A DNA stretch of 64,000 nt. It comes from Escherichia phage vB_EcoM-RPN187. How positions within the stretch are numbered: the first letter of the stretch is position 1; each line of letters starts with the position of its first letter. Of this stretch, positions 6,565 through 62,007 are shown in pieces. Made by a program: the position numbers and the translations under genes. Where the stretch lies: sequence record OL770074.2. The stretch is one strand, 5' to 3'. Under the pieces are notes generated by a model. It was not told the origin of the DNA, did not search any database, and was given only the letters and a program-made list of their open reading frames with translations.

Positions 6565-6791
6565 TAGTAAGTTTCCTTCCAATAAGTTGTACCATTTTCA
6601 GTGATTTCACGGAAGATACCATAGATAGGCATTTCATCACCGAGTTTTTCGTAAACGTAAACCACTTCAGTGTAGCATAAAAATTCTGTCCAGTTTTTCT
6701 GTACAACAACTAAATCAGGATTAAACAGAACATCTTCAAACTCATCGATGTTTGAATCAGTAGTTACATTTTTAATGATTTGGCGTTTCAT
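6564..6791 (-). CDS. hypothetical protein (75 aa)
   Basis: ORF-track N-terminus translates the promoter cassette; ATG (MKRQII) with SD GAGGAG chosen. Confidence 0.5.
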
Positions 6792-6819
6792 AATATTCTC
6801 CTCTTGTTTTGATAGGTCT

Positions 6820-6849
6820 ATAGTATCATAGGCCATAGTTGTTGTACAT
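6820..6849 (-). promoter_or_regulatory. early-type promoter cassette, variant -35 TGTACA, -10 TACTAT
   Basis: member of gataggtctata repeat family upstream of gene start. Confidence 0.4.
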
Positions 6850-7861: not shown

Positions 7862-8317
7862 TTAAGCTTTACGAGGAGACACATAACGAGTGATTTCAGA
7901 TTCTTTAACAACTCGGAAGTCACCTAAGAATACGATATTGTATAACTTTTCGCCATCTTCAACCCATTGGTCACTAATGAAGCCACACATAGTATCAGTT
8001 TTGCTTGGATAACCGTATTCATCGATGAAGTCAAATTCTTTATCAGTCTGGAATTCAACACCTTTACAAAGCTCCCATTTGAACTGTACATTAGGTTCAG
8101 TAGAAGAAAAATGAGCGCTCACACGAGTTTCCAGGAATTTAGGACTTACGTAAGCGTACTGAGTATCCTGACGTCCAAAACTAGGAACGATTCGAACTTT
8201 AACTTCTTTAATGCGTCCCATGCCATTTGTGCGAAGTCCGACAACTTCAACCAGACGACCTGCGGCTTTAGACCGGGATGCAGTTGATACACGCTTAATT
8301 TCACCAATAGTAATCAT
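7862..8317 (-). CDS. hypothetical protein, paralog of 7433..7852
   Basis: start set to MITIGEIKRV (aligns with paralog); ORF-track N-terminus MEYNEF is the TATAAT promoter region. Confidence 0.55.
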   Translation of the reverse strand: MITIGEIKRVSTASRSKAAGRLVEVVGLRTNGMGRIKEVKVRIVPSFGRQDTQYAYVSPKFLETRVSAHFSSTEPNVQFKWELCKGVEFQTDKEFDFIDEYGYPSKTDTMCGFISDQWVEDGEKLYNIVFLGDFRVVKESEITRYVSPRKA

Positions 8318-8347
8318 AATTTTTCTCTCTTTGTTTAAGTTGAATTC

Positions 8348-8377
8348 ATTATACTCCATCCATCCATGGATGTAAAC
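8348..8377 (-). promoter_or_regulatory. early promoter: -35 GTTTAC, 18-nt spacer containing CCATGG palindrome, -10 TATAAT
   Basis: minus-strand read upstream of 7862..8317. Confidence 0.55.
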
Positions 8378-11593: not shown

Positions 11594-12202
11594 TCAGTAA
11601 CTGACAATAGACATATTCCAGATTGTATAACTTCCATCTTGAATAATAGAATCTACACGCAGTGTAGTCCCTATAGGGAGCATAAATTCACATTCGTCAG
11701 ATATAAGTCTAGCATTAGACCGTCTTGTCGCTTCAGGGAAAGCTCCATTGAACTCACAAGATGGCGCAGCCAGAATCATGTTAAGCATATGTTCACGGAA
11801 GTTGAAAGCAAATGGTGCATCTTTGATGCAGAACATATTAAATGTTCCGTAAAAATTATACGAAGCAAAGTTACGTGCTACACCAAACACTGGACTAAAG
11901 CTCATTACTCTGTCAAATTTAATAATACTACCAATGCCTTTATCGTCGAGTGTGGCCATAGTTTTCTTAGAGATTCCACGATACATTGTCTCAGGAACTG
12001 AAGAAGACCAATTTCTACGAACAATTGCACTTAAATCTTGTTGGATGCTGTCTGGCTTGTTTTCCATACACTGCCATAGTACACTTTGTTCAATGTCGCT
12101 GAATTGCTCATCGATTTTGTACTGAAGCATATCTTGATAATCCGGGCATTGAGCACGTCGAACCATTTCTTCAATTTCACACTCGTTATACGGCATAAAC
12201 AT
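11594..12202 (-). CDS. modA: ADP-ribosyltransferase ModA-like (R-S-E class)
   Basis: 202 aa; YRG, SFS..ARNF and ECEF motifs; SD AGGAG. Confidence 0.75.
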   Translation of the reverse strand: MFMPYNECEIEEMVRRAQCPDYQDMLQYKIDEQFSDIEQSVLWQCMENKPDSIQQDLSAIVRRNWSSSVPETMYRGISKKTMATLDDKGIGSIIKFDRVMSFSPVFGVARNFASYNFYGTFNMFCIKDAPFAFNFREHMLNMILAAPSCEFNGAFPEATRRSNARLISDECEFMLPIGTTLRVDSIIQDGSYTIWNMSIVSY

Positions 12203-12259
12203 TTAGATTTCTCCTATGGTTGATAAAGGTATAGTATCATCATCGGAAGAGTTTGTACA

Positions 12260-12841
12260 CTAAAAATTCAACATTTTCAAATGAATGATTTTGTATAATC
12301 GAGATAAAGGGTCATATTCTAAGTCTTCAATTTCCACAATCTCAAATCTAGAGATACCTGAGACCATGTACTCTTGTTCAGATTCAATCATATCTAGGAC
12401 GTCAACACGTGTTTCTTCCATAACATGCTTAGGGTTCTTTCCGGCAAGTACAATGTTAACCATGTTTTGGTAGTAATCAAAAATGAATGGAGCATTCCTG
12501 AGACTAAGAATAGTGTACGTCTGATATTCCCAATTCCCAGAGAATTGACGAGCTGTACTGAAATCAGTTGTGAACGATGTTACTCGTCCAGGAGACCAAT
12601 GACATCCAACAGAAAGAAGGGAAAGACGTTCTACTTCTTCTGGAGTTACACCACGGTAGAGTTCTACTGGTACTGTAGAAGTCATATGCTTACGAACAAG
12701 ATGGTCTAATTCATAGTGGAAATCCGGGTCTTCCTTAGAATCAGTGCAAGCCCAGAGAATGTTTTGTTCTTGGCGGGTGAATTTGCTATCAATCAGATTT
12801 GTTAGGTATTCACGTTCTTGAAGTTCAGATTGACATGTCAT
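12260..12841 (-). CDS. modB: ADP-ribosyltransferase ModB-like (R-S-E class)
   Basis: 193 aa; YRG, STARQF, EQEYMV motifs; paralog of modA. Confidence 0.75.
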   Translation of the reverse strand: MTCQSELQEREYLTNLIDSKFTRQEQNILWACTDSKEDPDFHYELDHLVRKHMTSTVPVELYRGVTPEEVERLSLLSVGCHWSPGRVTSFTTDFSTARQFSGNWEYQTYTILSLRNAPFIFDYYQNMVNIVLAGKNPKHVMEETRVDVLDMIESEQEYMVSGISRFEIVEIEDLEYDPLSRLYKIIHLKMLNF

Positions 12842-12868
12842 GATAGACCTCCATTTAAAGATAAGCCT

Positions 12869-12897
12869 ATCATAACACGAGAGGAGGGAATGTAAAC
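12869..12897 (-). promoter_or_regulatory. early promoter: -35 GTTTAC, 17 nt, -10 TATGAT
   Basis: minus-strand read upstream of modB-like gene. Confidence 0.5.
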
Positions 12898-14127: not shown

Positions 14128-14320
14128 TAATTGTTCCTCGAACAAAACGAACACCGCCATCGTCCCAACGGATTTCGGCATTAAATTTGACGTCTTCACC
14201 ATCCATCATGAATGAGTGTACGACTACATCATCATAGTATCCAAGACCGTATTTCAACGAAACTTCTTGAGCAATCAAAGCACCTAATGTGTTATTAGGT
14301 TTAATCCAACGATTTAACAT
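14093..14320 (-). CDS. hypothetical protein (75 aa)
   Basis: ATG (MLNRWIK) with SD GAGGAG; ORF-track N-terminus reads through terminator and promoter. Confidence 0.5.
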   Translation of the reverse strand: MLNRWIKPNNTLGALIAQEVSLKYGLGYYDDVVVHSFMMDGEDVKFNAEIRWDDGGVRFVRGTINAYDAEEVVCC

Positions 14321-14387
14321 ATTGTTCTCCTCTTGAGTAAGTAAGAATATCTTAACACAGTTTTTAGTGGTTGTAAACTGTAGAAAC

Positions 14388-14412
14388 AAAAAAAGGAATC
14401 CCGAAGGATTCC
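14388..14412 (-). terminator. rho-independent terminator downstream of soc: GGAAUCC-UUCG-GGAUUCC followed by U7
   Basis: perfect 7-bp stem, UUCG loop, 7 A on plus (U-run on minus). Confidence 0.7.
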
Positions 14413-14420
14413 TTGAATTA

Positions 14421-17909: not shown

Positions 17910-18203
17910 TTATTCACCTGTGATTTCGGTTACGATATCTTTGTTATCGAAATTAGGGTCACAATACAAAACATAGTTGTACTGCATGATACCGCCAGAC
18001 TTAAGTTGTCCAACAACTTTATTAACCATATTAGGACGGTCTCGTTTAGTGATGTTCATGATATCAGAGAAGATTTGTTGTTCAACATCTTCTTGATTTG
18101 CAGTCATTGACCACTCACAGAGGTCTTTATCATAACCTGCCGTAACTGGAGCTGGTGCACATGATACTGCAAGTAAGATTGCTGCCAATGATAACTTTTT
18201 CAT
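17910..18203 (-). CDS. sp: spackle-like periplasmic protein with signal peptide
   Basis: 97 aa as T4 Sp; N-terminal signal peptide MKKLSLAAILLAVSCAPA; SD AGGAG. Confidence 0.65.
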   Translation of the reverse strand: MKKLSLAAILLAVSCAPAPVTAGYDKDLCEWSMTANQEDVEQQIFSDIMNITKRDRPNMVNKVVGQLKSGGIMQYNYVLYCDPNFDNKDIVTEITGE

Positions 18204-18232
18204 TTTAACTCCTTAGTTGATTTGATAGGACT

Positions 18233-18262
18233 ACTATACCATAGTCCATCTATAATGTAAAC
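18233..18262 (-). promoter_or_regulatory. early promoter: -35 GTTTAC, 18 nt, -10 TATAGT
   Basis: minus-strand read upstream of sp. Confidence 0.5.
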
Positions 18263-18266: not shown

Positions 18267-18515
18267 TTATTCTTTTTCGCGAATAATAATTACTTGTTGA
18301 GGCTGCTGGGCAGATTTCTTTTCGGCAACGATAGACCAAATTAAAGTTCCAATCCAACCAACCATCGTCCAGTTAAAGAGTAAAGACACAAAGAAGATTG
18401 CTGTTGTGCTTTTTGTGCCACGAATAAGTGCGATTACCCAAGGCAACATGTAAATGATGATTGAACCAATACCTGCGATTAAAACCGCTACTGAACTAGC
18501 TACGAATAATTCCAT
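18267..18515 (-). CDS. hypothetical membrane protein (2 TM)
   Basis: 82 aa hydrophobic, ATG, SD GGAAA. Confidence 0.55.
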   Translation of the reverse strand: MELFVASSVAVLIAGIGSIIIYMLPWVIALIRGTKSTTAIFFVSLLFNWTMVGWIGTLIWSIVAEKKSAQQPQQVIIIREKE

Positions 18516-18543
18516 GTTAATTTCCTCTTGATTTGTTATGTTT

Positions 18544-18573
18544 ATAATATCTTATTTTAACTTTGGTGTAAAC
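18544..18573 (-). promoter_or_regulatory. early promoter: -35 GTTTAC, 18 nt, -10 TATTAT
   Basis: minus-strand read upstream of 18267..18515. Confidence 0.5.
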
Positions 18574-18576: not shown

Positions 18577-18945
18577 TTAGTTAAATTTGTTTAAACGTTC
18601 AATACACTGGACGTAGTTATTTGCAATTTGTTTCTGGGTGGGCTCTTTACCAGTTGTTTCAACATAACGAATGAATGCGATTTCAGTAGCCTGTAGACAA
18701 TGTTCTTTAACACGTTGTTCTTTTGACAATGCTACAGTATCAGAGTCACGATAACGTTGAGCATAGGCATCAGCTTGAATCATTCGATTACCTACAGTAA
18801 CAGGGTCTTCCACTTCAACTTTAGGTTGGTCATACTGTTTAACATTCGGATTGTAAATCAGTTGGCCAACGTTATTAGGGATAAAGCCATGGGCACCACA
18901 TCCGGTTAATCCAAATACCATTGCTAAAGCGATTAATTTTTTCAT
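18577..18945 (-). CDS. putative lipoprotein
   Basis: 122 aa; signal peptide with lipobox LTGC. Confidence 0.6.
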   Translation of the reverse strand: MKKLIALAMVFGLTGCGAHGFIPNNVGQLIYNPNVKQYDQPKVEVEDPVTVGNRMIQADAYAQRYRDSDTVALSKEQRVKEHCLQATEIAFIRYVETTGKEPTQKQIANNYVQCIERLNKFN

Positions 18946-18973
18946 TTCAATTTCCTCTGTAGTTGATAGAAAG

Positions 18974-19003
18974 ATAGTAACACAGTATGTGGTGCTTGTA
19001 AAC
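18974..19003 (-). promoter_or_regulatory. early promoter: -35 GTTTAC, 18 nt, -10 TACTAT
   Basis: minus-strand read upstream of lipoprotein gene. Confidence 0.5.
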
Positions 19004-19573: not shown

Positions 19574-19948
19574 TTAAAAATGTAATTTAGATATATCTGC
19601 GTTGATTTCGTTTTGGTTTGCGTCATATGCAATTAAACGAACCGCTTTAGATGGGTCATTCAATGCATAGAAATGATGGAACATTGCTCGAACGATATCA
19701 CCATTTACGAGTTTTACCTGGATAGGAGAACCTTTTTCGAGTTGGAAATGTTCATAAGCTTTGATGGTTCGCAGATAATCAAGTTTTTGATTTCCGGCTC
19801 CAACAATTTGTACGATACGTTTGCCCATGTTTTCCATACGAGATACAATAGTTTTAGGAGCAAGAATAACGTAGGTTGCCAGCGGAGAAACTACTTCAAC
19901 AGTTGTGTTTTCGGTGATTGCAGTAAAAATTGCTTGAGACATATTCAT
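19574..19948 (-). CDS. hypothetical protein
   Basis: 124 aa, ATG, SD GAGGAAAA. Confidence 0.5.
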   Translation of the reverse strand: MNMSQAIFTAITENTTVEVVSPLATYVILAPKTIVSRMENMGKRIVQIVGAGNQKLDYLRTIKAYEHFQLEKGSPIQVKLVNGDIVRAMFHHFYALNDPSKAVRLIAYDANQNEINADISKLHF

Positions 19949-19977
19949 AATGTTTTCCTCTTGTTTGGTGTAAATAC

Positions 19978-20007
19978 ATCATATCATGCCTAGAGGAAGA
20001 TGTAAAC
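19978..20007 (-). promoter_or_regulatory. early promoter: -35 GTTTAC, 18 nt, -10 TATGAT
   Basis: minus-strand read upstream of 19574..19948. Confidence 0.5.
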
Positions 20008-28828: not shown

Positions 28829-28869
28829 GTTGTGGTCCTCATTGGTAAGTAGGAGTATTGTACACTATT

Positions 28870-35813: not shown

Positions 35814-35855
35814 TTAATTTGATGTGGTCATTATAACCACATCGTGTTAAAGCGT

Positions 35856-41550: not shown

Positions 41551-41790
41551 TTATTCCGTGATAAGATAATGTAAATAGTTTGCTTGACGAACACTGATAT
41601 CAACACCCATATCAAAGATACCTTTATAGAACGGGTATTTGTTTTCAGTAGAATCTAGACTAAAAGCCTTTCCACCACAACTAACGGTAATAGCATCAGT
41701 TAAAGTGTCATATACAAACTTAATAGTTGAGCCATTCACTACGACTTCAAGACGTTTTTTCGATGTAATAACGTCTAATTCTTGTTCCAT
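41551..41790 (-). CDS. hypothetical small protein
   Basis: 79 aa, ATG, SD GAGGAAA. Confidence 0.5.
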   Translation of the reverse strand: MEQELDVITSKKRLEVVVNGSTIKFVYDTLTDAITVSCGGKAFSLDSTENKYPFYKGIFDMGVDISVRQANYLHYLITE

Positions 41791-41853
41791 GATATTTTCC
41801 TCATTTTAAGACGATAGGAAGATAATAACACGTCTTCCTATCGTTGTACATTA

Positions 41854-42742: not shown

Positions 42743-42921
42743 GGCTTAATTTCCTTCGCAATTGAACAGAAGATACCACGGTCACAAAGCATTTCACCAA
42801 TTTCTGGATATTTGATTGAACGGTACCAAACATCCAGGCTTGAAACTCTGGTTATCTGTACTGCATTACCATTGACAGAATAGTACTGGTCGACCTTAAT
42901 TTCTTTATCTTCAATTGTCAT
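42739..42921 (-). CDS. hypothetical small protein (60 aa)
   Basis: ATG (MTIEDKEIK) with SD GGAAA; track N-terminus translates intergenic cassette. Confidence 0.45.
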   Translation of the reverse strand: MTIEDKEIKVDQYYSVNGNAVQITRVSSLDVWYRSIKYPEIGEMLCDRGIFCSIAKEIKP

Positions 42922-42949
42922 TTTATTTTCCTCTATAGTAGATGGTTTA

Positions 42950-42978
42950 ATCTTAACACATCTATTGAGGATGTAAAC
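42950..42978 (-). promoter_or_regulatory. early promoter: -35 GTTTAC, 17 nt, -10 TAAGAT (weak)
   Basis: minus-strand read upstream of 42739..42921. Confidence 0.4.
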
Positions 42979-47244: not shown

Positions 47245-47415
47245 TCAATATCCTCTATAAAAGTTGCGATGCGTGCGTTTCGCTTTGCGAAGCTGACGTT
47301 TAGTTGGTCGAACCGTAAATGGTCGTCCGGAGAAAAAATTTGGTTCGGTTTTAATCAACACATACCAATCGTGTTCGCCACTTTTTAATAAACGGTACAA
47401 TAATTTAACTTGCAT
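47245..47415 (-). CDS. possible small basic protein (56 aa)
   Basis: ATG (MQVKLLY) with SD GGAAGAG; ORF-track start TTG. Confidence 0.35.
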   Translation of the reverse strand: MQVKLLYRLLKSGEHDWYVLIKTEPNFFSGRPFTVRPTKRQLRKAKRTHRNFYRGY

Positions 47416-47464
47416 AATAATCTCTTCCCATTTCCAAATCAATCATATCGTTTACTGTAGGTTC

Positions 47465-47494
47465 ATCATAACACGTTTCTTCGTCGTTGTAAAC
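47465..47494 (-). promoter_or_regulatory. early promoter: -35 GTTTAC, 18 nt, -10 TATGAT, preceded by 8-bp hairpin CGGCUCGA/UCGAGCCG
   Basis: minus-strand read. Confidence 0.45.
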
Positions 47495-48832: not shown

Positions 48833-49782
48833 TATAAAACCTCAATGGCATTTCGTAAACCATCCGCTTTCGCATTCAGAGCTTTTAACGATTTAGTTTT
48901 TTCTGCAATCTGGGCTTCGACTTCTTTCAGTCGAGATTTGAGATATTCGCGTTCTTCTCTTAAATTATCAACTTTTTCTACTTTAGGTTCTTTAATAGGC
49001 TTAGGTTTATACGTATTAGGGTTCTTCAGTTTAATTAGAATGTGTGAACTGTACAGCATTGAACCATTATCTTCGGTTTCGTCATACATTTCCACTACGT
49101 CCATCATCTCCACCATCGTGCAGAGTTTATAAGACAACGAACGAATAGTTTTGTTGTGCTTATTAATTTCTTTAGAGTTCATGGTGCCTAGATTACGCGA
49201 GTAGTAATAAGGAACCTGGATATCAATTGTCAATGATGCGTTACCATTACCAGTTGGTTTGAATACTGCAGTAACCCAATCTTTAACATGAACTTTATTT
49301 GTACGACCATCGCCACCTGTGAATAATTTACGAGAATGTTTAAAAAGCATATTCACTTGGTTATTGAATTCACAAGCAAATTTATCAGCAAATTTAGTTT
49401 CAGGAATGGTAGATAACCAATCAGCCAAGTAGGTCTTTTTAACATCGTTAACAATAGTAAATTCAACCAAATCGGTTATAGATGTCGCAGTTTTAATGAA
49501 GCTCGGCTTCATAAAGTTTTTAATGTTATCGCGAGCTACAGTAGAAGATAATAAACGAGAACGTTTGAACCATTGAAGCAGTGTCCCTAATGAATGAGAA
49601 TACGCGTTTTGAGTATCTTTACAGATATGATTTTCTTGGCCTGTGTATGTACCAAAATCGCGAAGAATGCCACTTACTACAACTCGGTGTGGAACATCAA
49701 ATCCTAATGATCCAGAAGCACGTTGGGCATGAACGTTAGCGATAAGACCTGCAAAATAATCAATGTAATGTGAACGTGTCAT
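48832..49782 (-). CDS. hypothetical protein with C-terminal coiled coil
   Basis: 316 aa, ATG, SD GAGAGGAAA. Confidence 0.55.
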   Translation of the reverse strand: MTRSHYIDYFAGLIANVHAQRASGSLGFDVPHRVVVSGILRDFGTYTGQENHICKDTQNAYSHSLGTLLQWFKRSRLLSSTVARDNIKNFMKPSFIKTATSITDLVEFTIVNDVKKTYLADWLSTIPETKFADKFACEFNNQVNMLFKHSRKLFTGGDGRTNKVHVKDWVTAVFKPTGNGNASLTIDIQVPYYYSRNLGTMNSKEINKHNKTIRSLSYKLCTMVEMMDVVEMYDETEDNGSMLYSSHILIKLKNPNTYKPKPIKEPKVEKVDNLREEREYLKSRLKEVEAQIAEKTKSLKALNAKADGLRNAIEVL

Positions 49783-49810
49783 AATATTTTCCTCTCGTTA
49801 AGATAGAAAG

Positions 49811-49840
49811 ATTATACTCCAACCATCCTTGGTTGTAAAC
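49811..49840 (-). promoter_or_regulatory. early promoter: -35 GTTTAC, 18-nt spacer with small hairpin, -10 TATAAT
   Basis: minus-strand read; near-identical copy at 50804..50831. Confidence 0.55.
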
Positions 49841-49844: not shown

Positions 49845-50777
49845 TTATGATTTTAATGCATTCATTGCGTTAAAAAGTTTAGAGTACTGCAACTGGAGCT
49901 TGGTGACTACTTGTTGAGCATCACGAAGCTTAGCTTGTGCTTTGTCAAGTTCAACAGACAGTTGGTCCACAGTGCCTTTGATTTGATTATAATAGTAATC
50001 TTCTGCAGGAAGAAGACCGTTAGAGATTTCCAGTTTAGTCGACGGTGTGCCATTAAACATAACAGGTTGTGCTGAAGCCGCATTAATCTTACCGATAGTC
50101 GGGGCGACAATAATTGACGCTTCGAACGTTGCATTTTCCTTTTTAAGATTTTTATAATATTCAGAGTCTTTGTGCCACCATGGTGCAGGAACCTTTTTAC
50201 CAATAGATACACGAGCCTGGATAGCGATATGGCCCTTATTCTTGATAGGGTCGATAATATTAAGCTCACGAGAATAAATTGCTTTAATCTGGTGGATATT
50301 ATCACCTAACACTTCCAACGCTTGGTGGAATACACGAGCAACGTTATCATTCTTAGGTTTATACGTAAGAGTGAACTCGTTCTCACTGATAACCATGATT
50401 TCTAACTTATCGTAAGTATATTTCAAATGTTTCATGTTAATTGCTTGAGGACGAATACGAGAAGCAATGGCCATCAAATTGTTAAGGTTATTCCGGAACT
50501 GCTTAGCGAAATATTGTCCTTCACCGCCAATACAAAAATTACGAAGTTTCTGTTTGGCTAATAAACGGCTGAACTCACCATTTTTAATGAACTCTTTAAC
50601 GGGTGTGTTAGTAACGCATTCAAATTGAGTAAACTTACGAGAAGTAATCCCATAATATGAACAGATTTCCTCAATCTCTTCAGGAGTCTTTACAGGCATA
50701 CGGATAGGATTAGGACCTGGGGTATATGCGTTCGAGGTAAATTCTTTGATAAGTTCTCTACGTGTAATAGAAGCCAT
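49845..50777 (-). CDS. hypothetical protein with C-terminal coiled coil
   Basis: 310 aa, ATG, SD AGGA. Confidence 0.55.
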   Translation of the reverse strand: MASITRRELIKEFTSNAYTPGPNPIRMPVKTPEEIEEICSYYGITSRKFTQFECVTNTPVKEFIKNGEFSRLLAKQKLRNFCIGGEGQYFAKQFRNNLNNLMAIASRIRPQAINMKHLKYTYDKLEIMVISENEFTLTYKPKNDNVARVFHQALEVLGDNIHQIKAIYSRELNIIDPIKNKGHIAIQARVSIGKKVPAPWWHKDSEYYKNLKKENATFEASIIVAPTIGKINAASAQPVMFNGTPSTKLEISNGLLPAEDYYYNQIKGTVDQLSVELDKAQAKLRDAQQVVTKLQLQYSKLFNAMNALKS

Positions 50778-50803
50778 TTTATATTCCTCATGTTGAAAAA
50801 TTT

Positions 50804-50831
50804 ATTATACTCCAACCATCCTTGGTTGTAC
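50804..50831 (-). promoter_or_regulatory. early promoter, variant -35 GTACAA, -10 TATAAT
   Basis: near-identical to cassette at 49811..49840. Confidence 0.45.
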
Positions 50832-50832
50832 A

Positions 50833-51828
50833 TCATTCCTTAAGAAGTTTTACTACTTGAATAAGATTAGCTCGTTCTGTTTTATTTTTACCGTTTAAGC
50901 CTGCTAATCGTGAGATTTCATCGTCAGTCTGTTGAATAGTTACATTAAGTTCGTTAATCAAAGCTTCAAAGTATTTGATTTGCTCAGCATGTTTTGATTC
51001 AAATTTCTGAACCGGAATAACGTCTTGGTTCAGTTCATCAATAAGGTCTTTAAGAGCATCTTCTTGATTGATATCATATTCAACTTCTTTTATTTCTTCA
51101 ACGAGCTCGTCTTTATATCTAACGTCTTTTAGTCCTGGTGCTGGTCCTGAAATCTCTTCTTTAAGAGTACAAACATATCCAATACGGTATCCAATGCCGT
51201 CTCGCTTGATATCAACTTCGTCAATAAATCCACAATGTTTAAGACCAGAGCCGATTAAGTCAAAATATCCTTGACGACGTCCTTCAAACGTTACACGAAC
51301 TACTAAGACAGTTTTACCTGCAACCTTTTGAAGCTCACATTTATAAAAGTTTGTTGAACCTGAATAACGTGGATGAGTTTTAAAGTTCATCTGACGATCT
51401 AGGCCCATTTGTAAGCGTGCTGATACGGCCATAAAACGTGTTTGGTTCTCGTTAAGATGAGCAACAATCCATTTCAAAGGCATTTTACACTGTTCACGTC
51501 CGAACAAATCAGTACGTCCTAGATTACGCAGGATGTTGTTAGAGTTAATCATCGACAGAACGTTAAGTTTATTCAGCGCGCTGAAGATTCCATCGGCCAT
51601 TGATTTTCCGTAACCTTTACACGCTTTAATAAGCGCTCGCGGTAGATTAGTATAGATTTCAGACGGCATATGAAAATCAAATTTACTAGTCAGTAATTGA
51701 TGAACTTGGATAGCAATTTGCTCATAATTAAGTGCTCTGCGATCATTATGGTCTTTAAACCACACTTTAATCTGTGAAGCACATAAACCGTTAATTTCAT
51801 GTTTTACCGCATCAGATGTAATGCTCAT
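50833..51828 (-). CDS. hypothetical protein with C-terminal coiled coil
   Basis: 331 aa, ATG, SD GAGGAAA. Confidence 0.55.
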   Translation of the reverse strand: MSITSDAVKHEINGLCASQIKVWFKDHNDRRALNYEQIAIQVHQLLTSKFDFHMPSEIYTNLPRALIKACKGYGKSMADGIFSALNKLNVLSMINSNNILRNLGRTDLFGREQCKMPLKWIVAHLNENQTRFMAVSARLQMGLDRQMNFKTHPRYSGSTNFYKCELQKVAGKTVLVVRVTFEGRRQGYFDLIGSGLKHCGFIDEVDIKRDGIGYRIGYVCTLKEEISGPAPGLKDVRYKDELVEEIKEVEYDINQEDALKDLIDELNQDVIPVQKFESKHAEQIKYFEALINELNVTIQQTDDEISRLAGLNGKNKTERANLIQVVKLLKE

Positions 51829-51890: not shown

Positions 51891-52418
51891 TTATGCGTGA
51901 ACCGTCTTTAAACGTTCTTCAAATTTCCGAAGAGTACTAATACGTTCTGCTTTCTGTTTTGTATAGTTTGCAATACGTTCTGAAGTGAGAGCGTATCGTT
52001 CATTTACTGTTTCTTTCATGAAGTCAGGGATTTCACGAGAAGCTTTAATTTCATCAAACTTATCGAGTACTGCCTGGTCTTCAGTGATTAAATTTTCGTA
52101 CATCTCGATATCTTTCTTGATGAAGTCGATATCTTCCTGGGTTACTTTGGATAAACGAGATGCTTTATCCTTTTTGTACTGCTCGTTAGTTTCACGAGAC
52201 CAGAATAATGTACGTTTTTTGTTAGTGTTTTTGTAGACTTCCACAATTCCAACTGAATCAATGATAGCAATCCAATTCCAGCGAGATTTGAAAATCTGAC
52301 CTCCGTCCACGGTAATCTCGTTACCATAAGCAACGTCATTAAAGAACTTGCTTTGTGCTTCAGATTTAAATTTACCGTCGTTATAATTTACCAGGTTGAA
52401 AATATCTTTAGCGTTCAT
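51891..52418 (-). CDS. hypothetical protein
   Basis: 175 aa, ATG, SD GGAGGT. Confidence 0.55.
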   Translation of the reverse strand: MNAKDIFNLVNYNDGKFKSEAQSKFFNDVAYGNEITVDGGQIFKSRWNWIAIIDSVGIVEVYKNTNKKRTLFWSRETNEQYKKDKASRLSKVTQEDIDFIKKDIEMYENLITEDQAVLDKFDEIKASREIPDFMKETVNERYALTSERIANYTKQKAERISTLRKFEERLKTVHA

Positions 52419-52445
52419 GTTTTACCTCCAGTAGTTGATAGGTCT

Positions 52446-52474
52446 ATAATAACACAACCATAGACCTTGTAAAC
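52446..52474 (-). promoter_or_regulatory. early promoter: -35 GTTTAC, 17 nt, -10 TATTAT
   Basis: minus-strand read; contains gataggtctataata core. Confidence 0.55.
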
Positions 52475-52764: not shown

Positions 52765-52902
52765 AACATATCCTCTTTGATTTGTACACCATTATTTTTA
52801 AATATTTCTATGCCCTCAGTAGGTTCCTGGTGTCCTTCTTTGAGGTAAGCCATATGATTATTCATCTTTATGGCTTTTGTTACCTCAGAACTTCCTATAA
52901 GC

Positions 52903-53883
52903 TTATTTCAGTAAAGTTACTTCAGAGATTTCTTCCCAACCATCTTTATCAGTTGAAATAAAATCTGCTACATAAAGAGCCGTACGTAATGATACATTGC
53001 GAAGACGAGATACGTTAGCCTTCATCCAGGACAATGCTTTATACGTTTCTGCATCGGTCAGACCACGTTTCTGCATCATGTCAGTAGATAATATTACATC
53101 TTCAACTCGAACCATAATCTCTTCATTAGAGTGTACTCCAAGGTCGAGATACACCGAACGAGATACTAAAGCTTGAAGGTGTGGGGCAAGTTTCGAACCG
53201 CGTTCTAACTCTTTATCGATATCAACGTTTGTAATGAAAACGATAGTACCTTCAAACTCAAATTCTTTATCAATACCCTTATCATCGAGATAAGATGACG
53301 CAGTGCTCCAGCAAACTTTGCGTTTATCTCCAGTATCTAATGCTGCTTTAAGAAGGTTCAAGATGTCCATATCTGAGAATACGTCAACGTCGTCGATTAA
53401 GAGAACGCTGTCTGCATCACGGTTGAGCCAAAGTTGTTCGTAAAGGCCAATACCGGAGATTTTACCATTAATGCTTTTGTATTTGATGAAACCATTATCA
53501 TTAGCGTTATTAAGTGCTTTATCCAGAGAATACGTCTTACCAATACCAGCTGCACCTGAAATAATGAGTGAACGAATTTTGCCATCGATAATGCCATTCG
53601 TCATCATGTTCATTACTTTAAAGCGTTTGTTGATACGAGTTTTCATATCTTCAGTGCTTTCAACAACTGCAACTGGTGATGTCTCAACTCCTTCCATTAC
53701 GATGTCTGATTTGAAGACCCATACTCCACGTTCAGAACCATCAATCATAACGAAAATTTTACCATCACCTAAGTGGGAACATTCAGGATTAAGCTTTGCC
53801 GGGAACCATGTCTTTGTGGCGACATAAGAACCAGAGATTTCGTTATTACGATAGATACCTTTTTTGATTTGAACGTTGAACAT
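52903..53883 (-). CDS. P-loop NTPase (AAA-like) of unknown function
   Basis: Walker A GAAGIGKT, Walker B LLIDDVD; ATG (MFNVQIKKG) with SD GGAG chosen. Confidence 0.55.
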   Translation of the reverse strand: MFNVQIKKGIYRNNEISGSYVATKTWFPAKLNPECSHLGDGKIFVMIDGSERGVWVFKSDIVMEGVETSPVAVVESTEDMKTRINKRFKVMNMMTNGIIDGKIRSLIISGAAGIGKTYSLDKALNNANDNGFIKYKSINGKISGIGLYEQLWLNRDADSVLLIDDVDVFSDMDILNLLKAALDTGDKRKVCWSTASSYLDDKGIDKEFEFEGTIVFITNVDIDKELERGSKLAPHLQALVSRSVYLDLGVHSNEEIMVRVEDVILSTDMMQKRGLTDAETYKALSWMKANVSRLRNVSLRTALYVADFISTDKDGWEEISEVTLLK

Positions 53884-53921
53884 TTTATTCTCCAATTTAC
53901 TCATTTCGTTTCGATAGGTCT

Positions 53922-53950
53922 ATAATAACATGTTTAAAGCAAAAGTAAAC
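53922..53950 (-). promoter_or_regulatory. early promoter: -35 GTTTAC, 17 nt, -10 TATTAT
   Basis: minus-strand read. Confidence 0.55.
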
Positions 53951-53952: not shown

Positions 53953-54171
53953 TTATTTGCGACGAGATTTTTTGGTAAGAGGTTGAAAGAACACTGCTTT
54001 ACCTGCTGGGGTTAAGGTGACTCGTAACGCATTACCGATTCCCAAGGATGCTTTAACTAGACCTTTAGCTTTCAGTTCACCGAATGCTTGACGTTGGTCT
54101 GCATCACGAGTGTTAACCATAAGACCTTTATCACCAGCTTCACGAATCATTTCTAACATTTTGGTTTTCAT
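53953..54171 (-). CDS. hypothetical small basic protein (72 aa)
   Basis: ATG (MKTKMLEM) with SD GAGGAG; track N-terminus is translated cassette (IDLSKQEEN). Confidence 0.5.
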   Translation of the reverse strand: MKTKMLEMIREAGDKGLMVNTRDADQRQAFGELKAKGLVKASLGIGNALRVTLTPAGKAVFFQPLTKKSRRK

Positions 54172-54199
54172 TTTGTTCTCCTCTTGTTTTGATAGGTCT

Positions 54200-54227
54200 A
54201 TAATAACATATCCTAAAAGCATGTACA
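54200..54227 (-). promoter_or_regulatory. early promoter, variant -35 TGTACA, -10 TATTAT
   Basis: gataggtctataata core. Confidence 0.45.
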
Positions 54228-54280
54228 CTACTTTTTTAAAAATATTTTAACCCCCTAAAGGGACCCGAAGGTCCCCACAT

Positions 54281-54562: not shown

Positions 54563-54593
54563 ATTTACCTCAAGTTAATGGTTATTTATCTAC

Positions 54594-56774: not shown

Positions 56775-56881
56775 TTTACCATACTCGTTTCAATAAGATT
56801 CACTATGCCGTTTACCATGTTATAAGTAAACATCGGATAATTGTATTGTACTACAACATAAGCGATAAGCAAAAGTTTCAT
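56771..56881 (-). CDS. possible small hydrophobic peptide (36 aa)
   Basis: own translation MKLLLIAYVVVQYNYP...; SD GGAG; ATGA overlap with next ORF. Confidence 0.25.
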   Translation of the reverse strand: MKLLLIAYVVVQYNYPMFTYNMVNGIVNLIETSMVK

Positions 56882-56909
56882 TTTGTTCTCCATTTGTTTT
56901 GGTAGGACT

Positions 56910-56939
56910 ACTATAACATAGTCCTACCAAGACGTAAAC
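56910..56939 (-). promoter_or_regulatory. early promoter: -35 GTTTAC, 18 nt, -10 TATAGT within 10-bp inverted repeat GGTAGGACTA/TAGTCCTACC
   Basis: minus-strand read. Confidence 0.55.
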
Positions 56940-57417: not shown

Positions 57418-57597
57418 TCACATAATCTCGTTAACATACATTTGCAATTCGGTGTGGGCTTCGGCCATCTTTTTCATAGCTCTGTTAATGTCGATGTCTC
57501 CATCTTCGCAACCATGAGCATTTTCCCAATCAGATACAGCATTAGCGTACTCTTCAATCAAAAACATTAACTTAGAAATTTTTTCTTTACGTGACAT
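57418..57597 (-). CDS. hypothetical small protein
   Basis: ATG (MSRKEKI) with SD GGAG; ORF-track start TTG. Confidence 0.45.
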   Translation of the reverse strand: MSRKEKISKLMFLIEEYANAVSDWENAHGCEDGDIDINRAMKKMAEAHTELQMYVNEIM

Positions 57598-57624
57598 AAC
57601 GTTCTCCTCTAGTAAGTAAAGACT

Positions 57625-57653
57625 ACTATAACACAACCTGAGGAGAAGTAAAC
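57625..57653 (-). promoter_or_regulatory. early promoter: -35 GTTTAC, 17 nt, -10 TATAGT; 7-bp inverted repeat includes the SD
   Basis: minus-strand read. Confidence 0.55.
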
Positions 57654-57663: not shown

Positions 57664-57691
57664 AAAAAAGCCCCAACCGTAAGGAAGGGGC
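57664..57691 (-). terminator. rho-independent terminator GCCCC...GGGGC followed by U6
   Basis: GC-rich stem then 6 A on plus (U-run on minus), just downstream of 57699..58001. Confidence 0.6.
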
Positions 57692-59027: not shown

Positions 59028-59230
59028 TTAGGTTCACCTTCTTTAACGAAATCTGGGTAAGGGTAAAATCCTGAGTAAAACCCTTCACCTTTATGATTGC
59101 TACAACCTTTGTTCGAACAGTAACACCAATAATCAAAATCACAAGCCATTTCGTCATTGCATAAAGCAAAAACTACAGGCCATTCGCATTTTTCGCATTT
59201 AGCACCTGTAAGAATTTTTGTTTGACTCAT
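59024..59230 (-). CDS. hypothetical Cys-rich small protein
   Basis: ATG (MSQTKIL) with SD AAGGTGA; CEKCEW...CYCSNKGC. Confidence 0.45.
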   Translation of the reverse strand: MSQTKILTGAKCEKCEWPVVFALCNDEMACDFDYWCYCSNKGCSNHKGEGFYSGFYPYPDFVKEGEPK

Positions 59231-59439
59231 AGCCATGTCACCTTTAAGCAATATTCTTCTACATGTTGTTTACGACCTTTCTTATCAATAAAGGTATATT
59301 CAACGAATGTTCCGATGTAGTCTTTATCTACATCATGTGGACTATTAATTGGACATTTGGTACGACAAATGCGTTCCCATTGACGAATAATTACTGCCTT
59401 ATTCTTTGGGTCATACGGATGTGGATAATGTATATTCAT
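59227..59439 (-). CDS. hypothetical small protein
   Basis: ATG (MNIHYPH) with SD GGGAA; ATGA overlaps both neighbours. Confidence 0.45.
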   Translation of the reverse strand: MNIHYPHPYDPKNKAVIIRQWERICRTKCPINSPHDVDKDYIGTFVEYTFIDKKGRKQHVEEYCLKVTWL

Positions 59440-59903
59440 AATAATGGTTCCCAATCAACAATCACAATTTCTAGTTTAGTGGAATACGTATCTAAAATCT
59501 CTTCGATGACATCCCAGTTTCCACCACCGATACCTGCACCAATTCTTGGCATGTAAATTACAGGCTTTGTTATCTTATTCTTTCCGAATTCATTTAATTC
59601 TATTATACAATTCATTAAAGCAAAGTACTCAAAATTAGGTCCAGGCTCAAACTGCGTATAAAGATTAAAGCAATAAGCTTTATGTGTCTTAAAATATTTT
59701 TCATAAACTGAATAAGTCCCGAGTTTAGACTCGTCTCCGAATTCAGTTTGAAGTTTATCGGCTTCTAGAATTTTTGGATAAGCCTTTGCTAATTGTCCTG
59801 CCACACCAGCGCCCATTGTATGAAAACAATTACACCCATGAGCAATATTATTACCTTTAGAAAACAGGGCGACAATATCGCCCTTGATATAGTTTTTAAT
59901 CAC
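59436..59903 (-). CDS. macro-domain protein (ADP-ribose binding/hydrolase fold); start uncertain, probably GTG
   Basis: NIAHGCNCFHTMGAGVAGQLA and RIGAGIGGG macro-domain motifs; no ATG upstream of domain; GTG with SD GAGGAC. Confidence 0.65.
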   Translation of the reverse strand: MIKNYIKGDIVALFSKGNNIAHGCNCFHTMGAGVAGQLAKAYPKILEADKLQTEFGDESKLGTYSVYEKYFKTHKAYCFNLYTQFEPGPNFEYFALMNCIIELNEFGKNKITKPVIYMPRIGAGIGGGNWDVIEEILDTYSTKLEIVIVDWEPLL

Positions 59904-60243
59904 TTGCTGCAAGTCCTCTAGTATAAGAGTCAACTAGACGGTCCACCATAGAATTGCATGCTGCCTTATCTTTAGGTTCCGCCACCGAGCATTCTAATAT
60001 TTGCCATTTTTTATAGTATCTTTTAATTAAGGTGGACGCCTTGAACCTACTAGTCGCCCCATCTTTTTCTCCGTCTTTATACGCATATAACAATTTTTGT
60101 GAAAAATCTACTTTACACTCTTGACTTTTACCACAATAATCAGACGCTGTTCTGTTTGTATACTCCGTTACATCAGTATATGTAGTATTAGCAAGAGCGT
60201 TAAACGAAACCAAGCCAACTATTAAAGCCAACATTTTGGTCAT
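59896..60243 (-). CDS. hypothetical secreted protein
   Basis: 115 aa; signal peptide MTKMLALIVGLVSFNALA. Confidence 0.55.
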   Translation of the reverse strand: MTKMLALIVGLVSFNALANTTYTDVTEYTNRTASDYCGKSQECKVDFSQKLLYAYKDGEKDGATSRFKASTLIKRYYKKWQILECSVAEPKDKAACNSMVDRLVDSYTRGLAASD

Positions 60244-60782
60244 TCTTTTATTTCCAGTAGTTTGTTTGATTTAAGGTAATTAGCCTTTTCTAGGACTTCA
60301 GAAGCATATTTACTTCCAGCACTTGTCTTCCATCCCGCATTATATGAGGATATAGCTTTTCTTATATCCCCGTTATGTATATTTAACCAATAAGAAAATT
60401 CGATATAAGCCCATCTGGCTGAATTAGACCGCTTAGATAGCATTTTCTTAATTTGGGCATCAGTCATATTATAACCAAGCTGGTTAATTCTTGCCCTCAT
60501 TGTTGGTAGATAATTTTGGAACATTCCATACGCATGGTGACCTTTCTTATCTTTAAGATTAATACCGGCAGATGATTCCTGCCATAGTATTGCGGCCATT
60601 ATGTATCCAAGTCCTTTCTTATGCATGTTTTCATGCGTTTTAAATTTTCCATCCTTAGAAAACTGTTCCCCAAACTGATAAGCATAATTCAAGTTATCGA
60701 GTTGGACATTACTAAAAGTATGCTCGGAGCTATGTGCTGATAATGAAAGAGCAAATAGACCAGCGAGTAGTGCTTTTCTCAT
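60240..60782 (-). CDS. secreted lytic transglycosylase-like protein (SLT domain)
   Basis: 180 aa; signal peptide; LWQESSAG...AYGMFQ resembles SLT catalytic E-S and GLMQ motifs. Confidence 0.55.
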   Translation of the reverse strand: MRKALLAGLFALSLSAHSSEHTFSNVQLDNLNYAYQFGEQFSKDGKFKTHENMHKKGLGYIMAAILWQESSAGINLKDKKGHHAYGMFQNYLPTMRARINQLGYNMTDAQIKKMLSKRSNSARWAYIEFSYWLNIHNGDIRKAISSYNAGWKTSAGSKYASEVLEKANYLKSNKLLEIKE

Positions 60783-60790
60783 GTTTACCT

Positions 60791-61249
60791 CTAGATTTTA
60801 ATCACTGCTTTAGAAGCTTTTCCTGGTAGTCGTTTACTGTTAATAATAGCCATTCTGCATTGAAGAGTCTTCATTTTGAACGCTGGATTTTCGCGACAAA
60901 CTGTAAGTCCTAACCAAAGATTTCCGTCAGTTATTTCTAAACGGCCTGGGCGATATTCGACACCTTCGACAAAATCTTCATCAACATCTGGACGTGCCGG
61001 CATTGATAAAAATTCTGTAACTTCTTTAACATGATTTTTTACTTTACGAAATAATTCAAAAACGTAGTTCTCATCTATTTCTCTCTGGATGGCACGATCT
61101 AAGAGATGTTGAGAATACTTGATATGAAAGCCTGGTAGTCCAAGAGACTTTGCAGCATCTTTTATACCGGCATTTATTTTGCGGAACTCCGTTTCAAAGA
61201 TTCGACGGAGTTTATTACGGCGGATAAAAACGTCAGAATTGATAGTCAT
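60791..61249 (-). CDS. regB: endoribonuclease RegB
   Basis: 152 aa; closely matches recalled T4 RegB (FHIKYSQHLLDRAIQREIDE...RPGRLEITDGNLWLG). Confidence 0.85.
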   Translation of the reverse strand: MTINSDVFIRRNKLRRIFETEFRKINAGIKDAAKSLGLPGFHIKYSQHLLDRAIQREIDENYVFELFRKVKNHVKEVTEFLSMPARPDVDEDFVEGVEYRPGRLEITDGNLWLGLTVCRENPAFKMKTLQCRMAIINSKRLPGKASKAVIKI

Positions 61250-61277
61250 TTTTTATTTCTCCTCTAGTTGACAGGTC

Positions 61278-61306
61278 TATAGTAACACAACTAGAGGAGA
61301 AGTAAA
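61278..61306 (-). promoter_or_regulatory. early promoter cassette: -35 GTTTAC, 17 nt, -10 TACTAT, flanked by 9-bp inverted repeat CTCTAGTTG/CAACTAGAG next to regB SD
   Basis: minus-strand read. Confidence 0.6.
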
Positions 61307-61311
61307 CTACT

Positions 61312-61527
61312 TTATTGATAAAATGGAGTTAAAGCCCAAGATTCTTTAGATACCATATCGGCGAAATGCCTCATCTCTTCGATTTGGCGACGACGCTGGT
61401 CAGCATAGTCTTCTTCGCCTTCTTCCTTACAATCTTCAAGGTCTTCTTCAAGATACTTTAAGTATTCACTACAAATTTTGTTGACCTTTTCTTGAAAGTC
61501 CAATAACCCAGTAATAGTAGAAGCCAT
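61312..61527 (-). CDS. hypothetical small acidic protein
   Basis: 71 aa, TAATG overlap. Confidence 0.5.
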   Translation of the reverse strand: MASTITGLLDFQEKVNKICSEYLKYLEEDLEDCKEEGEEDYADQRRRQIEEMRHFADMVSKESWALTPFYQ

Positions 61528-61793
61528 TAGTATTTTTCCTCAGGTCGAAATACTGCACGACATGCCCACATGCTGGCTTCTTTTAGATGTTGCTTAGCAT
61601 ACTTAAGAGCCTGCACTGCATCCATATCTTCTTTGGTTTGTTGCTCTGATTCATTTTCTTTCAAGATATATGCTTCTTCAATCAGAGCATCAAACATCAA
61701 TCCAAGACGGACTTCTGCATCTTTAATAGCGTTCACTTTACTGATTTTATCATCGGTATGCGGCTTGTAGCCTTTGATGTCTTCAATCGACAT
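61527..61793 (-). CDS. hypothetical protein (88 aa)
   Basis: ATG (MSIEDIKGY) with strong SD GAGGAAA chosen over long track ORF. Confidence 0.45.
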   Translation of the reverse strand: MSIEDIKGYKPHTDDKISKVNAIKDAEVRLGLMFDALIEEAYILKENESEQQTKEDMDAVQALKYAKQHLKEASMWACRAVFRPEEKY

Positions 61794-62007
61794 AAGGAAT
61801 TTCCTCATCGGTGGCAAGGTCATATTCGACCAATTGGATAGGCTCATTAATACCATATCCGCGTACAGTGATATCGGTTGACGGATATTTTCCAGTAATA
61901 TCACCAATTCTAAATGATTCAATGAATGATTGCTCGCCTGAGCAACTAAACCAGGCGGCAAAACATTTTAAAACATCTTCAGACCCTTCTATAATCAATT
62001 TAGCCAT
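61783..62007 (-). CDS. hypothetical small protein
   Basis: 74 aa, TAATG overlap with grcA stop. Confidence 0.5.
   Translation of the reverse strand: MAKLIIEGSEDVLKCFAAWFSCSGEQSFIESFRIGDITGKYPSTDITVRGYGINEPIQLVEYDLATDEEIPYVD

Follow-up and report, generated by a model that had tools for sequence, protein, structure and literature searches.

The first 64,000 nucleotides (nt) of the genome of Escherichia phage vB_EcoM-RPN187 (OL770074.2), referred to here as the window, contain a family of minus-strand cassettes in which an early promoter is fused to a ribosome-binding site. The best explanation of the family as a whole is probably that its members are early promoter and ribosome-binding-site modules, a subset of which carries within the promoter itself an anti-Shine-Dalgarno (anti-SD) sequence that would silence read-through mRNA. 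The focal example is the cassette of regB, in which the segment directly after the -35 hexamer can pair with the Shine-Dalgarno sequence (SD). Comparative sequence evidence gives good support to this promoter-embedded anti-SD, which a minority of the copies carry and which would be a modest new version of a regulatory device already known. Because the 5' arm lies upstream of the cassette's own transcription start (+1), the hairpin can form only on transcripts that arrive from an upstream promoter.

The window comprises the first 64 kb of a Mosigvirus (RB69-like) genome, and over positions 60000-64000 it shares 99.8% identity with the Mosigvirus Escherichia phage AV112. RB69 (NC_004928) is collinear with the window from the first base (end of rIIA) to about 63.3 kb at 93-97% identity; this collinearity is broken by eight indels or replacements and stops at 63324. 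Nearly all genes of the window are encoded by the minus strand. They are named after the RB69 record, and the cassettes, likewise all on this strand, are designated by their high-end coordinate (e.g. 61307, 19573). Counts over 24 cassettes refer to the set found with a profile hidden Markov model (HMM), counts over 26 to regular-expression copies, and fold z scores to 20 tested cassettes.

The cassette family

A motif search, which the first-pass annotation of the window had proposed, was carried out with a regular expression and a profile HMM and reveals a strand-specific enrichment. On the minus strand there are 18 occurrences of GTTTAC-N17/18-TANNAT and on the plus strand none, compared with 0.27 +/- 0.47 expected from 100 dinucleotide shuffles. 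With the profile HMM, for which 23 copies were used, 24 sites score E <= 1e-3; each of them is on the minus strand, and the next match has E = 0.18. A generic sigma-70 scan of the window is uninformative (58 and 61 matches versus 52.7 and 71.0 expected); the T4-specific motif alone is enriched. A repeat finder used with no prior also picks out the cassettes, which make up its largest direct-repeat families (D1-D8 and D11) in the window. The annotation had claimed the same minus-strand module in at least 20 intergenic regions, and all 22 copies that it listed exist on that strand, each given by the low end of its -10 hexamer. Its list lacked 14378 and 41851, and included one copy, 47494, that lies inside a coding region rather than between genes. 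Two further regular-expression matches, 48860 and 63286, were discarded, since neither reaches significance with the profile HMM and the intergenic context is missing.

The order of elements from 5' to 3' is the stop codon of the upstream gene within an A/T tract, the -35, the spacer, the extended -10, the +1 region, the SD and the ATG. Among the 24 copies the -35 is GTTTAC in 18, GTGTAC in three and ATGTAC in three; 10 copies have a 17-nt spacer and 14 a spacer of 18 nt. The -10 is extended (TGTGTTAYTAT), with a TGTGT-like extension in most copies; the T4 counterpart is TGTG(A/G)TA(C/T)(A/T)AT. The region from -6 to +5 is conserved as AGACCTATCAA, and the "conserved core" tatagacctatcaa recognized earlier corresponds to the -10 plus these positions. 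A leader of about 20 nt follows, all copies have an SD and an ATG, and the ATG lies 25-31 nt past the -10 in 21 of 24 cassettes, about 28 nt being typical. The 20 nt upstream of the -35 are 74% A+T and 40% A, as compared to 63% and 33% strand-wide, and form an A-rich, UP-like tract. For 16 of the 24 cassettes the upstream gene has its stop codon at -1 to +5 nt relative to the -35; with a range of -1 to +12 nt the number rises to 17.

The copies fall into two sets of 12, one at 6.8-20.0 kb and the other at 41.8-63.5 kb, and the genes downstream are mostly of unknown function. No cassette is found within the 21.8-kb 41-uvsX-43-45-46-47-55 block (P about 4.5e-5). As a separate observation, this conserved replication block contains cassette-like 3' halves at 28826-28865 and 35799-35837 (minus strand), each with a -10-like element, SD and ATG and without GTTTAC; these may be middle promoters.

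The family is one of T4-type early promoters fused to ribosome-binding sites, its promoter activity being assigned by homology. It has already been catalogued and is not in itself a discovery: 58 early promoters (Pe) were predicted in RB69 and their coordinates deposited (Nolan et al., 2006; Virol J 3:30, Additional file 3), and 23 of the 24 cassettes map, by BLAST onto RB69, to early promoters of that list, the first base of the -35 falling 12-14 nt inside the 5' end given there. RB69 early promoters prefer C at -3 to -1 (Nolan et al., 2006), and AGACCTA in the window cassettes agrees with this preference. The T4 RefSeq record has no promoter features. In T4, early transcription from such promoters is established, also for the T4 regB promoter (PMC3014915).

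Predicted hairpins that pair the promoter with the SD

Four cassettes carry the main finding. Their features, together with a hairpin that precedes one of them, are as follows.

61247..61307, minus strand: regB cassette (focal); RB69 orthologue is Pe:61376 of Nolan et al. (2006); fold z = -5.58, 0/200 shuffles
61302-61307, 61279-61284 and 61272: regB -35 GTTTAC, -10 TACTAT and predicted +1 G
61259-61264 and 61247-61249: regB SD GAGGAG and ATG
61288..61301, minus strand: regB 5' arm TTCTCCTCTAGTTG (anti-SD), in the spacer right after the -35
61257..61270, minus strand: regB 3' arm CAACTAGAGGAGAA with the SD; 14-bp stem with the 5' arm
61252-61262, minus strand: regB GGAGAAATAAA, two mismatches to the RegB/S1 site GGAGRAYARAA
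19516..19573, minus strand: RB69ORF040c homologue cassette; 14-bp anti-SD:SD stem; z = -5.48; perfect RegB/S1 site GGAGAACAAAA
7371..7428, minus strand: motB.2 cassette; 13-bp anti-SD:SD stem with arms 7410-7422 / 7378-7390; z = -5.81
57595..57653, minus strand: mobD.2a cassette; 8-bp anti-SD:SD stem TTCTCCTC/GAGGAGAA at 57640-57647 / 57602-57609; z = -1.39
57664..57691, minus strand: terminator-like hairpin CCCCTTCC-TTAC-GGTTGGGG then CTTTTTT, read from the sequence just upstream of 57653

The hairpins of the family have three geometries. In the first, an anti-SD (TTCTCC...) right after the -35 is paired with the SD, over 14 bp in 61307 and 19573, 13 bp in 7428 and 8 bp in 57653, and more weakly in 20007 and 42978. 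In the second, a stem around the -10 ends in the +1 region (56939, 41851, 52474 and 18262), and in the third a small hairpin lies within the spacer (49840, 50833 and 8377). The modB cassette 12897 is a special case in which the -10/+1 region is paired with the start codon. An anti-SD tetramer is present at most 12 nt after the -35 in eight of 24 cassettes, compared with 4.5% of same-strand windows (P = 7e-6). The perfect 12-bp example noted earlier at 19525-19536/19554-19565 is indeed perfect and actually extends to 14 bp (19554-19567 / 19523-19536).

When the segment from the -35 to the ATG was folded and compared with dinucleotide shuffles, seven of 20 cassettes had z <= -2.4. The strongest folds are those of 7428 (-5.81), 56939 (-5.73), 61307 (-5.58) and 19573 (-5.48), each unmatched in 200 shuffles; 41851 (-3.31), 42978 (-2.70) and 12897 (-2.40) are intermediate. 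T4 and five other T-even lineages have a similar share, with roughly a third of cassettes at z < -3. The first-pass annotation had treated inverted repeats as a family-wide feature, which they are not: in just 7 of 26 copies can spacer and leader form a perfect stem of 7 bp or more. Perfect stems of at least 11 bp are found in five copies; shuffled spacers reach 7 bp in 2% of cases and never exceed 10 bp. No Rfam family was found anywhere in the window.

Read-through and promoter-initiated leaders

Leaders were folded twice, from 30 nt upstream of the -35 and from the +1 position predicted for each cassette. In the folded long leader the SD of regB has a probability of 0.16 of being unpaired, versus 0.90 in the promoter-initiated leader. 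The corresponding values are 0.01 versus 0.81 for 19573, 0.02 versus 0.58 for 7428 and 0.12 versus 0.72 for 57653, and no buried SD was predicted among the promoter-initiated leaders. The mechanism put forward in the first-pass annotation, in which read-through RNA hides the SD and the cassette's own transcript exposes it, is thus well supported in silico for the four strong cassettes (61307, 19573, 7428 and 57653); a few weak ones may follow it, and the family does not.

In the proposed mechanism, host sigma-70 RNA polymerase would fire the cassette promoters immediately after infection, by homology with T4. About one-third of copies contain the sequence of a predicted RNA hairpin with its 5' arm ahead of their own start, and in four to seven copies the 5' arm is an anti-SD right after the -35 and the 3' arm the SD. 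On mRNA from the cassette's own early promoter the gene would be translated and its SD would be open to RegB. On read-through RNA the gene would be silent and the SD closed to both ribosomes and RegB. Expression would thereby be tied to a short immediate-early window, and tandem promoters would be kept from adding up.

Conservation of pairing at regB and in other cassettes

Loci of regB were gathered by RegB protein homology alone, from 97% down to 40% identity, giving 10 sequences in six lineage groups. The long stem is retained in seven of the 10 sequences (four of six groups), with distal sequences that differ. It measures 14 bp in Mosigvirus, 15 bp including two G·U pairs in the T4 group, and 15 bp and 11-12 bp in two more groups. 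One group of two sequences has just a 6-bp anti-SD pairing plus a -10-flanking stem, and the most distant regB relative has no stem. The long stem persists down to 63% RegB identity and the short anti-SD pairing down to 55%. Covariation was scored on an ungapped alignment anchored on the SD GGAG only; whole-cassette MAFFT alignment put the stems out of register. The regB stem scores 0.279 versus 0.110 +/- 0.026 for column shuffles (0/500) and 0.06-0.10 for slid registers, and seven of its pairs have changed on both sides. Relatives of the motB.2 cassette in IMG/VR are all about 98% identical and carry no covariation information.

The design recurs in T4, which has anti-SD:SD pairing at regB, denV (10 bp) and nrdC.8 (11-13 bp), and whose mobD.2 and ipI cassettes have stems that flank the -10. 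At mobD.2 the T4 stem (14 bp) and that of the window are in the same position and have unrelated sequences.

The stems might instead be DNA-level features or mutational by-products (a recombination or cruciform site, a protein-binding site or a product of template switching) with no RNA function, which we regard as highly improbable. Cassettes do occur at recombination junctions, and the authors who described stem-loop cassettes of this kind speculated on a stem-binding protein. These junctions require homology only and no palindrome, and a single common binding protein is excluded because the sequence of each stem is different. The persistence of the regB pairing across lineages also argues against a DNA-level origin, as does the type of mismatch. 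The mismatch count covered stems of nine or more Watson-Crick pairs in the window, in T4 and RB69 and at 16 metagenomic loci, with all mismatch types penalised equally. Isolated mismatches comprise 20 G·U, 2 A·C and 1 other, from related sequences that reduce the G·U count to about 13-15 independent events. The excess of G·U over A·C is unexpected for a DNA palindrome and points to RNA pairing of the transcribed strand (the minus strand of the window). An earlier count (27 and 54 G·U versus 37 and 46 A·C) was dropped because terminal extensions, with both types treated as neutral, made it noisy.

Several observations weigh against the proposed switch or narrow its reach. The remaining 13 of 20 cassettes have z scores from -1.95 to +1.3 and thus no significant structure. 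Across the 26 regular-expression copies, the clear contrast of the four strong cassettes is lost, with a mean SD-unpaired probability in long leaders of 0.42 versus 0.49 when the upstream half is shuffled. With two-thirds of cassettes unstructured and SD accessibility across the family equal to that of the shuffled control, the mechanism is confined to a minority. The transcription starts used for folding come from the consensus. The hairpin type of nrdC.8 switches from SD-hiding in T4 to -10-flanking in the window, and the 14-bp stem of ORF040c is specific to Mosigvirus. In a wider set of 13 SD-pairing stems covariation is 0.371 versus 0.136, a test that is partly circular because its members were picked for having stems. 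Some of the G·U pairs lie in the G/T-rich extended -10, where composition is biased. T4 is the classic system for quasi-palindrome correction, and quasi-palindrome template switching could produce perfect arms without selection. Finally, the upstream stop codon lies 0-5 nt before the -35 in most copies, so that a terminating ribosome could open part of the 5' arm, giving coupling instead of silencing.

Such translational coupling, in which a ribosome that ends translation of the upstream gene would unwind the anti-SD arm and so make the SD of the downstream gene available, is an unlikely alternative. Besides the stop codon position in 16 of 24 cassettes, it draws on 19573, where the stop abuts the -35, so that TTCTCCA of the 5' arm would fall within a ribosome footprint of about 15 nt; coupling accounts equally well for the evidence from structure and covariation. 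At regB and motB.2, however, the stop lies 4 nt before the -35 and the ribosome would reach just 2-3 of the 13-14 stem pairs, and the -10-flanking stems never touch the SD.

The link to RegB

The target of RegB with S1 is the single-stranded 11-mer GGAGRAYARAA, and structure inhibits RegB (Durand et al., 2006; PMC1702504). The regB mRNA is cleaved in its own SD in T4-related phages, including RB69 (PMC3014915). In the window the 11-mer is present in the SD regions of 10 of 24 cassettes at no more than two mismatches, four of them perfect. All four strong SD-pairing cassettes have GGAG SDs; such SDs are common overall (14/26), and the association is not significant.

These sites allow for a different function, namely that the SD helix shields RNA from nuclease by hiding GGAGAAYAAAA on long polycistronic RNA, which would be kept intact while the short promoter-proximal mRNA is cut. 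The GGAG SDs of the four cassettes, the frequency of RegB/S1 matches, and the need of RegB for single-stranded RNA, with structured GGAG sites of T4 being resistant (PMC1702504), are in favor of this. Given how common GGAG SDs are, and given that T4 denV has the hairpin yet is a poor RegB substrate for reasons of sequence, a shield as the primary function appears quite improbable. It is also compatible with SD silencing on read-through mRNA and does not exclude it.

Terminators and attenuation

No U-tract follows any SD-pairing or -10-flanking stem, and A-rich leaders follow instead. The SD-pairing stems have loops of 17-19 nt, and a terminator scan flagged no SD-pairing or -10-flanking stem. 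Lacking a U-tract, the stems do not have the sequence signature of intrinsic terminators. A role as plus-strand (antisense) terminators was also rejected, as no T-run follows on the plus strand.

Hairpins of terminator type are found just upstream of the promoter in four cassettes (14378, 20007, 54228 and 57653), with a UUCG loop in three. Besides the hairpin ahead of 57653 listed above, these are:

14393..14414, minus strand: intrinsic terminator AAGGAATCC-TTCG-GGATTCCTT then TTTTTG, upstream of 14378; GGAATCC-TTCG-GGATTCC
about 20010-20030, minus strand: UUCG hairpin GGAGACTTCGGTCTCC ahead of cassette 20007; GGAGAC-TTCG-GTCTCC
about 54269-54285, minus strand: UUCG hairpin GGGGACC-TTCG-GGTCCC, forming the right-hand junction of the 54283-54596 insertion

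None of the five cassettes with the strongest internal stems has such an upstream terminator. This is consistent with internal stem and upstream terminator being two alternative insulations from upstream transcription, the numbers being small. About half of the copies have neither a significant stem (7/20) nor an upstream hairpin of terminator type (four).

In the original reading of such cassettes the stem-loops are attenuators or terminators that stop or reduce incoming transcription, so that the gene is served mainly by its own promoter. One stem-loop of phage RB49 cut lacZ expression about as much as the rrnB T1 terminator (PMC2839356), and the four terminator-like upstream hairpins, with the strongest internal hairpins located elsewhere, also fit an attenuator. 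The tested RB49 stems are G/C-rich and the window stems lack a U-tract, so the terminator function is not simply transferable; together with the loop length and the negative terminator scan, this makes attenuation by the internal stems improbable.

Cassettes as recombination patches

The copies are near-identical over 30-70 nt and so act as patches for homologous recombination, by which a gene between two copies would be deleted or inserted. RB69 has motB.1 and ORF012 (555 bp) between two cassettes where the window has one, 8377, whose upstream half corresponds to the first RB69 copy and the downstream half to the second. Likewise, the metagenomic relative L023 is without the ORF102c module between 54228 and 53950, and its junction is a hybrid of both. 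Both junctions are textbook events of the promoter early stem-loop (PeSL) type, and such hybrids give a concrete view of module swapping between related phages. The other breakpoints comprise three that lie 15-55 bp upstream of cassettes and four elsewhere.

Identical stretches of 27-42 nt are shared between cassettes tens of kilobases apart. The nrdC.3 cassette (49799-49840) and the RB69 motB.1 cassette (about 8893-8934), 40 kb away, share about 40 nt, 19573 and 52474 share 33 nt, and 6849 and 54228 share 27 nt. Identity of this length goes beyond what a promoter needs and speaks for sequence exchange between copies, and the sequences suggest gene conversion between distant cassettes. Two more cassettes are further recombination scars:

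52765..52797, minus strand: truncated cassette upstream of nrdC.9; GTGTACA joined straight to AATCAAAGAGGATATGTTATG, no -10; E = 0.86
63439..63496, minus strand: orphan cassette; its ATG opens a 3-codon open reading frame (ORF) ATGACTCGATGA, followed by about 220 nt without a gene before vs.8 (63184-63496)

The truncated copy, at a junction of a window/RB69 replacement, belongs to a 170-bp segment that replaces 28 bp of RB69 (52765-52902). T4 denV begins with ATGACTCGT, and by comparison the ORF ATGACTCGATGA of the orphan cassette looks like the stump of a displaced denV.

Remaining cassettes and neighbouring features

The other members of the family are listed below, those with internal structure first.

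56879..56939, minus strand: mobD.2 homologue (34 codons) cassette; 12-13 bp stem around the -10, 56919-56930 / 56899-56910; z = -5.73; SD left free
41788..41851, minus strand: RB69ORF075c homologue cassette; 12-bp stem around the -10, 41833-41844 / 41811-41822; z = -3.31
42919..42978, minus strand: cassette of a gp55.6-like ORF (60 aa); interrupted stem CCTC..TAGATG / CATCTA..GAGG reaching the SD; z = -2.70
12839..12897, minus strand: modB cassette; -10/+1 region pairs with the start-codon region (AUGAUAGGC.../...GGUCUAUCAUG); z = -2.40; anti-SD CCTCC after the -35; start codon, not SD, paired in the predicted fold (12839-12880)
52416..52474, minus strand: nrdC.8 cassette; 8-11 bp stem AGGTCTAT(GGT)/(ATT)ATAGACCT around the -10; z = -1.72; outer helix also touches the SD in the longer leader (SD unpaired 0.22 versus 0.58)
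19946..20007, minus strand: RB69ORF041c homologue cassette; weak 7-bp stem TTCCTCT/AGAGGAA; z = -0.92
18201..18262, minus strand: sp cassette; 7-bp stem GGACTAT../..TAGTCC around the -10; z = -1.89
49780..49840, minus strand: nrdC.3 cassette; spacer hairpin CAACCA-AGGA-TGGTTG; z = -1.53
50775..50833, minus strand: nrdC.5 cassette; same spacer hairpin as nrdC.3; 27/27 identical to 49811-49837 (D11); z = -1.95
8315..8377, minus strand: motB cassette; hybrid of two RB69 cassettes flanking motB.1 and ORF012
54169..54228, minus strand: RB69ORF102c homologue cassette; UUCG hairpin GGGGACCTTCGGGTCCC ahead; z = -0.15
53881..53950, minus strand: nrdC.10 cassette; perfect RegB/S1 site GGAGAATAAAA; partner in the L023 deletion
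14318..14378, minus strand: mrh.2 cassette; no internal hairpin; z = +0.69
6789..6849, minus strand: cef cassette; -35 ATGTAC, overlapped by the motB.2 stop codon
11438..11519, minus strand: srd cassette; long leader, -10 to ATG 50 nt
12200..12260, minus strand: modA cassette; z = -0.46
18513..18573, minus strand: imm cassette; no structure, minimum free energy 0, z = +1.32
18943..19003, minus strand: imm.1 cassette; RB69 has a 204-bp insertion (gene 61.4) whose end is about 12-20 bp upstream of the -35; z = +0.84
47413..47494, minus strand: promoter-like copy in the gp49.1 coding region; profile HMM E = 1e-5; T4 has a copy at the same place; status as a promoter uncertain

The ORF040c cassette differs among relatives. 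The ORF040c promoters of other T-even genera (L042, L046, L049, L051 and L054-L057) have a short anti-SD [A/T]TCTCC right after the -35 plus an upstream UUCG terminator. The RB69 ORF040c cassette (about 20462-20542, minus strand) has a 1-nt spacer deletion (to 16 nt) and one stem mismatch, which fits its low score in the 2006 promoter list.

Two stretches of the window are absent from RB69. At 54281-54596 (minus strand) a 93-codon ORF with a signal-peptide-like start, MKKLVIGLFAVMMAFSVGATTGAASG..., lies between nrdC.11 and the UUCG-loop hairpin and has its own SD and no promoter cassette. At 59035-59446 a 411-bp insertion relative to RB69 contains two overlapping ORFs of about 75 codons, and neither of its ends is at a cassette.

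Significance and comparison with known systems

The cassette family alone is textbook T-even biology that is listed for RB69 and adds little; of more use is the subset with an anti-SD. Should the anti-SD behave as predicted, one gene would be carried on two overlapping mRNAs, translated from one and silent on the other. This would help to explain how T-even phages restrict the RegB nuclease and similar products to the earliest minutes of infection, why transcripts and proteins differ in timing in T4 omics data, and how expression is kept from adding up across tandem promoter-gene modules. A promoter, insulator and ribosome-binding site within about 60 nt could also serve synthetic biology as a compact portable part.

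The cassettes share with the RB69 early promoters the GTTTAC hexamer, the A-rich upstream tract, the GT-rich extended -10 and the C at -3 to -1 (Nolan et al., 2006); the window phage and RB69 differ by about 4% of sequence and the eight indels. However, hairpins or stem-loops are mentioned 0 times in that work, which treats the sites purely as promoters. With respect to RegB/S1 sites, the focal cassette drives regB itself and its SD is a known RegB site in T4-related phages, whereas the published site is single-stranded and pairing with a promoter-borne anti-SD is not discussed there.

The resemblance to PeSL cassettes, described for RB49 and phi1 (Arbiol et al., 2010) and for PST/T4 and nt-1/KVP40 (Comeau et al., 2014), had been noted in the first-pass annotation and holds in part. 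Both are composites of stop codon, A/T tract, early promoter, SD and ATG, with the SD/ATG at the 3' end, and a subset of the window copies also has the stem-loop. Both are clustered in hyperplastic regions beside small genes of unknown function, with hybrid or degraded copies at indel junctions. The resemblance fails for the terminator or attenuator signature, and it extends to the stem in no more than a fraction of the copies. Those RB49 stems that were tested have G/C-rich sequences and function as terminators, and the stem described for PST/T4 is upstream of the promoter, an arrangement that the drawing of Comeau et al. (2014) shares with the four upstream terminator-type hairpins of the window. 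In contrast, most of the strong window stems extend across the -10 as far as the +1 region or the SD, have no U-tract and occur in about one-third of copies, and SD pairing is not part of the PeSL description.

The parallel in mechanism is the group formed by e, soc, 49 and I-TevI of T4 (also segB and Aeh1 mobE), in which a helix buries the SD/AUG in long transcripts and an internal promoter gives a translatable RNA without the 5' arm. The internal promoter of these genes is late or middle and their expression is delayed, whereas the window promoters are early, so that early-only rather than delayed expression is predicted. No description of an early-promoter version of this SD-hiding switch was found in the searchable literature, a scope that leaves out older T4 literature, where prior mention is possible. 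Tentatively, the promoter-embedded anti-SD may be a conserved early-gene design of T-even phages (regB, denV, nrdC.8, motB.2, ORF040c and others) in which translation and RegB sensitivity are set by the source promoter, making it an early-only mirror of the e/soc/49/I-TevI type.

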